From Escherichia coli (lineage in GTDB: Bacteria; Pseudomonadota; Gammaproteobacteria; Enterobacterales; Enterobacteriaceae), in the NCBI RefSeq assembly GCF_003334405.1, contig NZ_QOWM01000006.1: a stretch of DNA of 64,000 bases; one strand, given 5' to 3'. The notes beneath the pieces were generated by a model. That model was not told the DNA's origin, ran no database searches, and saw only the letters and a program-made list of their open reading frames with translations. This document shows, one piece after another, positions 10,876-12,789 of the stretch. Within the stretch, counting starts at the first letter, position 1; each line of letters starts with the position of its first letter. The position numbers and the translations under genes were made by a program.

Positions 10876-12249
10876 TTAATGCGCTTTTACGGCTTTGGCG
10901 GTTTTCTCTTTAAACAGATAGCCGATACCTAACACGATCAGCCATACCGGGATCAGGTATACCGAAATCGCCATTCCTGGGGTCATCAGCATAATCACCA
11001 GTACCGCCGCCATAAACAGCAGGCAGATCCAGTTACCCAGCGGATAAAGCAGAGCAGGGAAGCGAGTTACCACGCCTTGTTCCTGCTTGGCGCGACGGAA
11101 TTTCATATGCGCCAGGCTAATCATCGCCCAGTTGATTACCAGTGCAGATACCACCAGCGCCATTAACAGTCCGAAAGCGGACTCTGGGGCAAGGTAGTTA
11201 ATCAGTACGCACAACGCCGTTACCAGTGCAGACACCAGAATGGTATTTACTGGTACACCACGTTTATCGACAGACGCCAGCGCTTTTGGCGCATTACCCT
11301 GTTGTGCCAGACCAAACAGCATACGGCTGTTGCAATATACGCAGCTGTTGTACACGGAGAGCGCCGCAGTCAGTACCACGATGTTCAGCGCATTCGCCAC
11401 AAAGGTATCGCCTAACTCGTGGAAGATCAGCACAAACGGACTGGTATCGGCGGTAACGCGGGTCCACGGCATCAGTGAGAGCAGAACGGCTAACGAACCA
11501 ATATAGAAAATCAGGATGCGGTAGATAACCTGGTTAGTTGCTTTCGGTATACTTTGCTCCGGGTTATCAGCTTCTGCTGCGGTGATCCCCACCAGTTCCA
11601 GACCACCGAACGAGAACATGATAATCGCCATCATCATCACCAGCCCGGTGAAGCCGTGCGGCAGGAAACCACCCTGATCCCACAGGTTGCTAACGGTCGC
11701 CTGCGGGCCGCCGTTGCCACTGAATAGCAGCCAGCCGCCGAAGATGATCATCGCTACCACCGCGATAACTTTGATAATGGCAAACCAGAACTCCATCTCG
11801 CCAAACACTTTAACGTTGGTCAGGTTGATGGCGTTAATCACCACAAAGAATACGGCGGCAGAAACCCAGGTGGGGATTTCCGGATACCAGAACTGAATGT
11901 ATTTACCCACGGCAGTCAGCTCAGCCATGGCAACTAAAACGTACAGTACCCAGTAGTTCCAGCCAGAGGCGAAACCGGCAAAACTGCCCCAGTATTTATA
12001 AGCAAAGTGGCTAAAGGAGCCTGCGACAGGTTCTTCGACCACCATTTCACCCAGCTGACGCATGATCAGAAAGGCGATAAAACCAGCAATGGCGTAACCC
12101 AGGATAATCCCTGGCCCTGCGGACTGTATTACGGAGGCGCTACCCAGGAATAACCCGGTCCCTATCGCGCCACCCAGCGCGATAAGCTGAATATGGCGGT
12201 TTTTAAGGCCGCGCTTTAGCTGCTCGCCGTGCTGTTGACCTTCCATCAT
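10876..12249 (-). CDS. aroP: Aromatic amino acid:H+ symporter
   Basis: 457-aa multi-pass membrane ORF recognised as AroP (APC family). Confidence 0.95.
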   Translation of the reverse strand: MMEGQQHGEQLKRGLKNRHIQLIALGGAIGTGLFLGSASVIQSAGPGIILGYAIAGFIAFLIMRQLGEMVVEEPVAGSFSHFAYKYWGSFAGFASGWNYWVLYVLVAMAELTAVGKYIQFWYPEIPTWVSAAVFFVVINAINLTNVKVFGEMEFWFAIIKVIAVVAMIIFGGWLLFSGNGGPQATVSNLWDQGGFLPHGFTGLVMMMAIIMFSFGGLELVGITAAEADNPEQSIPKATNQVIYRILIFYIGSLAVLLSLMPWTRVTADTSPFVLIFHELGDTFVANALNIVVLTAALSVYNSCVYCNSRMLFGLAQQGNAPKALASVDKRGVPVNTILVSALVTALCVLINYLAPESAFGLLMALVVSALVINWAMISLAHMKFRRAKQEQGVVTRFPALLYPLGNWICLLFMAAVLVIMLMTPGMAISVYLIPVWLIVLGIGYLFKEKTAKAVKAH

Positions 12250-12319
12250 GAAACCTCGTGCGGTGGTTGTTTTTTTGATCTACGCAGTGATGCGTGTGTA
12301 AGTTTGCAATTCCGTTTGT

Positions 12320-12337
12320 TGTATTAATTTGTTTACA
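12320..12337. promoter_or_regulatory. Putative TyrR box upstream of aroP
   Basis: tgtatt-N6-tttaca resembles the TyrR box consensus TGTAAA-N6-TTTACA (right half perfect, left half 4/6); aroP is a known TyrR target. Confidence 0.35.
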
Positions 12338-12741
12338 TCAAAGAAGTTTGAATTGTTACAAAAAGACTTCCGTCAGATCAAGAATAATGGTATGCGGCAG
12401 CGAATGCACCCGCTTTATGCATGGTTGAAGATGAGTTGCTTAAAAAGAAACCGTTTGTAAAGCTCAGCCTCAACCCCTCTCAATATGTAGAATGAATTTA
12501 AATTCGTTTTAATTGAATTAAAAATCACAAAATTGGTAAGTGAATCGGTTCAATTCGGATTTTTATAGTTTAATAATCGTTAAAAAACTCCTTTCCTACG
12601 TAAAGTCTACATTTGTGCATAGTTACAACTTTGAAACGTTATATATGTCAAGTTGTTAAAATGTGCACAGTTTCATGATTTCAATCAAAACCTGTATGGA
12701 CATAAGGTGAATACTTTGTTACTTTAGCGTCACAGACATGA

Positions 12742-12758
12742 AATTGGTAAGACCAATT
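12742..12758. promoter_or_regulatory. PdhR operator (autoregulatory site)
   Basis: Perfect palindrome aattggt-aag-accaatt about 30 bp upstream of the pdhR start, matching the known PdhR box. Confidence 0.75.
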
Positions 12759-12789
12759 GACTTCGGCAAGTGGCTTAAGACAGGAACTC

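Follow-up and report, generated by a model that had tools for sequence, protein, structure and literature searches.

The aroP–pdhR spacer of Escherichia coli is a known and well-studied divergent control region, and its PdhR operator, TyrR boxes, promoter P3, Cra control and ArgR binding have all already been published. The pdhR-aceEF-lpd operon is preceded by an operator for PdhR, a repressor of the GntR/FadR family, which carries the box AATTGGTnnnACCAATT. Transcription of pdhR begins at a single A located 58 nt upstream of the ATG, as mapped by 5′RACE (PMC2759082), and the PdhR box at MG1655 position 122052 matches the consensus at 14 of 14 positions and gives the strongest gSELEX peak, with a GGTnnnACC core that the authors regard as a requirement for tight PdhR binding (PMC7660256). 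For some weak PdhR targets in the literature, the match is limited to 7 or 8 of the 14 consensus positions. The operon is also repressed by Cra (PMC5888115, PMC4021462), whose published motif is gcTGAAtCGaTTCAgc, with TGAATCGATTCA as its core, and whose site is placed by Kim et al. ‘downstream of two promoters’ (PMC5888115). The regulon of this factor, also named FruR, has expanded to central metabolism in Enterobacteriaceae (PMC4052901).

On the side of aroP, the spacer contains a weak and a strong box bound by TyrR, according to work cited in PMC7142922, and aroP possesses the promoters P1 and P2 as well as a divergent promoter, P3, with the −10 element TGGTAT (PMC7142922). The insertion site of the PAIusp islet in the spacer has been described, and P3 drives usp in the strains that carry it (PMC7142922). 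In vivo binding of ArgR upstream of the aroP promoter has been detected by ChIP-exo, the ArgR motif being made of two 18-bp boxes and a 3-bp spacer, 39 bp in total (PMC4381063). ArcA binds the spacer in two regions, and FNR binds it as well (PMC3798270, PMC3974632).

The DNA considered here is a 64,000-nucleotide stretch of E. coli (the window), whose 541 bases at 12250–12790 are 100% identical to K-12 MG1655 and are matched in 5,424 of the 5,426 complete E. coli genomes. Adding 109,302 to a window coordinate gives the MG1655 coordinate, which puts the centre of the PdhR palindrome at 122,052, the published position of the PdhR box. Because the aroP start codon ends at 12249 and the pdhR ATG lies at 12790, the spacer corresponds to 12250–12789, 540 bp with 35% G+C, and RefSeq annotates aroP on the minus and pdhR-aceE on the plus strand at the identical MG1655 locus. 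A sequence-only reading of the window had recognized these 540 bp as the aroP/pdhR divergent control region, and the open reading frames, RefSeq and published work (PMC7660256, PMC7142922, PMC2759082) agree with it. An Rfam scan of 11900–13200 (E ≤ 1) returned no RNA family. A scan of 12200–12850 for consensus promoters and terminators found none, which is consistent with the published remark that the consensus elements of the pdhR promoter are poor (PMC2759082). The features discussed below are listed in Table 1.

Table 1. Annotated and predicted features of the aroP–pdhR region, in window coordinates.
Feature	Position	Strand	Basis
aroP CDS	10876–12249	−	ORF and RefSeq annotation of the identical MG1655 locus
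Weak TyrR box (probable) TGTAAGTTTGCAATTCCG	12297–12314		Conserved TGTAA...ATTCCG block; 23 bp from the strong box
Strong TyrR box TGTATTAATTTGTTTACA	12320–12337		Two mismatches to TGTAAA-N6-TTTACA; TGTAnn...TTTAC conserved across aligned species
aroP divergent promoter P3, toward pdhR	12366–12393	+	Putative −35 GACTTC 12366–12371; −10 TGGTAT 12388–12393
Tandem ARG boxes (18+3+18 bp), predicted ArgR operator of aroP	12491–12529		Sequence, recurrence and ChIP-exo literature
11-mer AAATTGGTAAG, copy of the PdhR-box left half and spacer	12530–12540	+	Direct repeat; lineage-specific; judged non-functional as a PdhR site
Predicted Cra/FruR-type operator TGAATCGGTTCA	12541–12552		11/12 to TGAATCGATTCA; conserved
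pdhR transcription start, A, 58 nt upstream of ATG 12790	12732	+	5′RACE (PMC2759082), mapped onto the window
PdhR operator AATTGGTAAGACCAATT, perfect palindrome	12742–12758		Exact match, PWM, conservation and gSELEX
pdhR CDS	12790–13554	+	In-frame ORF from ATG 12790 and RefSeq annotation

The arrangement is best explained, with a probability of roughly 0.8 for the explanation as a whole, by adjoining operators of different regulators that include one PdhR operator, the 11-mer found further upstream being coincidental. In this explanation, a PdhR dimer represses its own operon through the single palindrome near the transcription start and is released by pyruvate. Upstream, the 11-mer would be a short spacer between a 39-bp pair of ARG boxes, predicted to serve the control of aroP by ArgR, and a 12-bp Cra-type palindrome, and point substitutions restricted to the E. 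coli lineage would have made it drift until it was identical to the PdhR-box left half. The Cra-type palindrome itself keeps a constant distance to the pdhR promoter throughout the Enterobacteriaceae. ArgR and Cra are predicted to occupy their respective boxes, and PdhR is not expected to bind the 11-mer usefully. On this reading, a chance half-site is spared annotation as a regulatory element, and the conserved unit at the distal position is the Cra-type operator, not the PdhR half-site.

The proximal element, identical to the described PdhR operator, is the sole zero-mismatch match to its palindrome in the 64-kb window, and the perfect PdhR palindrome claimed at 12742–12758 by the sequence-only reading is borne out both by this exact match and by the published operator. 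Since the transcription start maps to 12732, the box extends from +11 to +27. On a symmetrised position weight matrix (PWM) derived from the 28 gSELEX sites in Table 1 of PMC7660256, it tops the ranking with 21.8 bits (rank 1 of 63,984 window positions). Its halves, AATTGGT-N3-ACCAATT, are invariant in all 79 usable spacers and lie 46–49 bp before the ATG in nearly all of them, the mean frequency of the K-12 base reaching 0.99 across 77 species. The proximal element is therefore a PdhR operator in every respect considered, namely a perfect inverted repeat, a position downstream of the transcription start, conservation and published binding.

The left half and spacer of this box recur upstream as an exact 11-nt direct repeat, AAATTGGTAAG being present both at 12530–12540 and at 12741–12751, 211 bp apart. 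Downstream of the distal copy, TGAATCGGTT leads into CAATT (12551–12555), which amounts to a 10-bp insertion in place of the ‘AC’ of the real box, and the similarity between the distal and proximal sequences stops at 11 nt. The string pointed out earlier, a left half and spacer with an insertion of 8–10 bp before CAATT, is hence confirmed, the insertion being 10 bp long. Among dinucleotide-preserving shuffles of the spacer, 8% contain a direct repeat of at least 11 nt of any kind and 15% contain the bare half-site heptamer; a string of at least 11 nt shared with the 27-nt PdhR-box region appears in 0.7%. As a string, the 11-mer repeat is mildly unusual, but it was selected post hoc and finds no support across species.

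As a binding site for PdhR, the distal element compares poorly with the operator. Read in register, the distal 17-mer AATTGGTAAGTGAATCG reaches 1.7 bits (rank 388 of 63,984, or about one such site per 165 bp); on the same matrix, 23 of the 28 published gSELEX sites reach at least 12 bits. Its left half matches at 7 of 7 positions and its right half at 1 of 7 (TGAATCG versus ACCAATT), and a search for the PdhR palindrome allowing up to three mismatches gave no match at 12531–12547. The right-half ACC, kept in 26 of the 28 published PdhR sites, is missing from the distal sequence GGTAAGTGA, which does not contain the GGTnnnACC core. Set against the PdhR operator, the distal element has the left half and spacer only and is not a member of this class, since 12531–12547 lacks the inverted repeat, the core, the score and the cross-species conservation. 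gSELEX-chip yields one peak for the whole spacer (PMC7660256), obtained with fragments of 200–300 bp that do not separate two sites 211 bp apart. This peak, at 121966, is offset by 86 bp from the box at 122052. The offset was considered as a sign of a second site and rejected, as offsets of 80–170 bp are found at other single-box PdhR targets, including cyoA (90 bp), ndh (108 bp), grcA (81 bp) and acrB (170 bp) (PMC7660256).

The sequence-only reading had proposed that the partial duplicate could be a degenerate second PdhR site allowing looping. This would be a functional auxiliary site specific to E. coli, at which a dimer weakly bound to the half-site would loop over the 211 bp or compete with Cra. 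The identity of left half and spacer over 11 nt (P about 0.007), a distance of about 20 helical turns that is nearly integral, the retention of TTGGTAAG in four Escherichia sequences and the overlap that an in-register 17-bp PdhR footprint would have with the left arm of the Cra-type box all speak for such a site. It is nevertheless decidedly improbable. The right half is matched at a single position in register and CAATT lies 10 bp out of place, further than a rigid dimer of the GntR/FadR type would be expected to reach. The PWM score does not rise above background, and the half-site has one mismatch in E. albertii and is found neither in other genera nor in the approximately 20% of E. coli genomes that lack it while encoding the same PdhR. 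Moreover, the published consensus analysis stresses GGTnnnACC for tight binding (PMC7660256). The known looping systems offer a partial likeness: the lac operators O1–O2/O3 and the gal operators OE–OI consist of two sites a few hundred base pairs apart and in helical phase. Their auxiliary operators differ from the distal site, a half-site only, in being complete pseudo-palindromes bound by tetramers. No report of PdhR-mediated looping was found in the literature examined.

The comparison across species bears on both this proposal and the origin of the 11-mer. One genome per species with PdhR was scanned, giving 80 loci, in 79 of which aroP and pdhR are divergent neighbours, and the spacer measures 524–653 bp in all but one of these 79 species. 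Superficieibacter sp. 1612_C1 (locus L059, 4022–6001) has a spacer of 1,978 bp as against approximately 530 bp elsewhere, so that an insertion is present. Among the 79 species, a distal AATTGGT is limited to E. coli, where K-12 and a second lineage have it, and to Escherichia sp. E1V33; the sequence of E. albertii, AAGTTGGTAAG, differs at one base. All four of the Escherichia sequences in the comparison, E. albertii included, retain TTGGTAAG, which may be under weak lineage-specific selection. Averaged over 77 species, the K-12 base has a frequency of 0.37 in the 11-mer versus 0.50 in the adjacent spacer. In a 22-species alignment, other genera fill the 11 distal columns with unrelated bases and without any indel, and the 12 nt that precede the Cra-type box vary from genus to genus at constant length. 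In Citrobacter FP75, for instance, AAATAGGCAGG is three substitutions away from the AAATTGGTAAG of E. coli. Because the other genera differ there without an indel, the 11-mer appears to have been substituted, not duplicated, within a non-conserved gap. This gap is defined by its neighbours, since the ARG boxes end at 12529 and the Cra-type box starts at 12541, leaving 11 bp that the 11-mer fills.

The other origin envisaged for the partial duplicate was a duplicated PdhR operator that decayed and was afterwards interrupted by an insertion, and the presence of both the 11-nt left half and spacer and the CAATT tail, in the right order, would fit it. Such an origin is barely credible. The Cra-type box, shared by 76 species, is older than the 11-mer of the E. 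coli lineage, and its spacing to the PdhR box is 199–202 bp with or without the 11-mer; therefore, no extra DNA has been added. Sister genera are a few substitutions away at the same columns, the similarity ends at 11 nt, and CAATT is accounted for by the palindrome itself, whose TTCA arm runs into ATT; in most of the other genera, TTCAG is read. The supposed insertion is itself a conserved Cra-type operator and not an interruption of a duplicated box. We thus favour coincidence in the E. coli lineage, the 11-mer being neither a second PdhR operator nor the remnant of a duplication. Both proposals of the sequence-only reading fall here: the second site for want of a right half, a core, a score above background and conservation, and the remnant because other genera have unrelated bases at the same position without an indel.

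Directly adjacent to the 11-mer, TGAATCGGTTCA is the best match to the Cra motif in the 64-kb window, with one mismatch to the core. A Cra-type box with at most two mismatches is present in 76 of the 79 species, at −248 to −252 from the pdhR ATG except in two species (−259 and −266), and its start lies 199–202 bp upstream of the PdhR box in 76 of 76. Its distance to the aroP start codon ranges from 273 to 404 bp across species, and the box can therefore be assigned to pdhR and not to aroP, the spacing being fixed on the pdhR side and variable on the other. The mean frequency of the K-12 base at 12541–12552 is 0.96 (77 species), and almost all variation falls at positions 5 and 8, which are lower case in the published motif. 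More broadly, the approximately 250 bp upstream of pdhR (12541–12789) are nearly free of indels in 76 enterobacterial species, and the aroP side varies by more than 100 bp.

The element shares with the operators of Cra, a member of the LacI family with the motif gcTGAAtCGaTTCAgc, an 11/12 core match, a Cra-repressed operon and conservation throughout the Enterobacteriaceae; it combines a motif match with a footprint at a fixed position beside a Cra-regulated operon. From the sequence and its conservation, we infer that TGAATCGGTTCA is a Cra operator, and Cra repression of pdhR-aceEF-lpd is most likely exerted through 12541–12552. A full-text literature search for TGAATCGGTTCA returned unrelated primer sequences only. 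Sites at which Cra represses normally overlap or follow the promoter, and in this respect the box, with its centre about 186 bp upstream of the pdhR transcription start, is unusual. The fixed distance of 199–202 bp between a Cra-type box and the PdhR operator in 76 enterobacterial species may be of interest to specialists.

Operators of the LacI family share a central CG and similar arms. TGAAnCGnTTCA could on this account belong to another regulator of the family, or Cra could act elsewhere, for example at 12945–12956 within pdhR, where the Cra-like sequence TGAGGCGATTCA, with two mismatches, is found. The resemblance among LacI-family operators allows for the former, and the phrase ‘downstream of two promoters’ (PMC5888115) is not readily reconciled with a box 186 bp upstream of the start site. 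We nonetheless regard both versions as unlikely, for TGAAnCGnTTCA fits the published Cra motif at 11 of the 12 core positions and varies mostly at positions 5 and 8. The published wording is not necessarily in conflict with the Cra-type box either, because the box is downstream of the aroP promoter P3, which points toward pdhR. As to the intragenic sequence, it occupies codons 52–56 of pdhR, 404 bp from the upstream Cra-type box, and is the only Cra-like sequence downstream of the transcription start. Third-position entropy there is 0.17–1.32, compared with a pdhR mean of 1.0, which corresponds to ordinary synonymous variation, and about three matches with two mismatches are expected by chance per window. 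The possibility that 12945–12956 is a conserved second Cra operator looping with the upstream box was accordingly rejected, there being no excess of synonymous-site conservation, and TGAGGCGATTCA is probably a chance match. The upstream box thus remains our preferred site of Cra action.

Natural variation within E. coli separates the half-site from the Cra-type box. Of the 5,426 complete E. coli genomes, 4,348 contain the 40-bp distal element and about 1,078 (approximately 20%) do not, the latter being essentially B2-type strains like UM146, ST131 and CFT073. This absence, together with the lack of conservation of the 11-mer, further opposes a second PdhR site. In these strains (loci L002, L003 and L004 20486–24650), window positions of about 12339–12599 are replaced by the PAIusp islet of approximately 4 kb, which contains usp (annotated as a TssD/Hcp fusion) and immunity genes, and 98% homology to K-12 resumes at 12600. 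They read TTGCTTGG, then TGAATCGGTTCA, then GAGG, so that the half-site is gone and the Cra-type box is kept at the same distance; the accession of their PdhR protein is identical to that of the half-site carriers. A new PdhR half-site of the E. coli lineage, abutting the Cra operator, might allow weak binding of PdhR beside or over the Cra box, perhaps stabilized by looping, and so couple pyruvate sensing to Cra control. We find this very hard to accept; if true, the coupling would be missing in the approximately 20% of strains that carry PAIusp.

The imported right flank of the islet, next to pdhR, is 70% identical to Salmonella enterica subsp. arizonae and 53% identical to K-12. As it is closer to the former, the comparison suggests that the islet came by replacement of a whole spacer segment from a foreign donor. 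The converse, in which the distal segment of K-12 would be a scar of PAIusp, was rejected, given that 76 islet-free species share its spacer length and Cra box; judged by this sharing, the K-12 arrangement is ancestral, and the PAIusp strains carry an imported replacement. In CFT073 (L002 1748–3000, at about window 12648), an IS3-family element is inserted around 84 bp upstream of the pdhR transcription start, separating the pdhR promoter from the Cra-type box and from everything further upstream.

On the other side of the 11-mer lie the two ARG cores TGAATTTAAATTCG (12493–12506) and TGAATTAAAAATCA (12514–12527), 21 bp apart. The ARG-box consensus is TGAAT-WWWW-ATTCA, from which each core departs by one mismatch, and one of the palindromes was also found in an inverted-repeat listing. 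Measured from the Cra-type box, the positions of the two cores show the consensus with at most two mismatches in 37 of 76 and 18 of 76 species, a recurrence in other genera far above the background rate of 1.5e-4 core matches per position. The element has exactly the 18+3+18 architecture of described ArgR operators. It is a probable ArgR operator and likely represents the ChIP-exo site located upstream of the aroP promoter.

Closer to aroP, the TyrR-box-like element that had been noted near the aroP start corresponds to TGTATTaatttgTTTACA at 12320–12337 and matches published work; it is palindromic, has the conserved G and C and lies close to a promoter regulated by TyrR. The weak box is probable, its exact coordinates being estimated from the conserved block. 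Around P3, AATAATGGTA is conserved in the species alignment. As far as the account of Wang, Yang and Pittard (1997) given in PMC7142922 extends, the TyrR boxes and the promoters P1, P2 and P3 show no difference here and constitute the same system.

Further conserved blocks accompany these elements. Nine of the 10 positions of the FNR-type consensus TTGAT-N4-ATCAA are shared by ATGATTTCAATCAA (12675–12688), which has its centre approximately 50 bp upstream of the pdhR transcription start and is invariant in the species alignment; it is probably the FNR site implied by the published ChIP data. Just downstream of the P3 start, GAATGCACCCGCTTTATG and TAAAAAGAAACCGTTTGTAAA (12402–12420 and 12441–12461) are strongly conserved and may serve aroP P1 as UP or −35 elements, or be bound by another factor.
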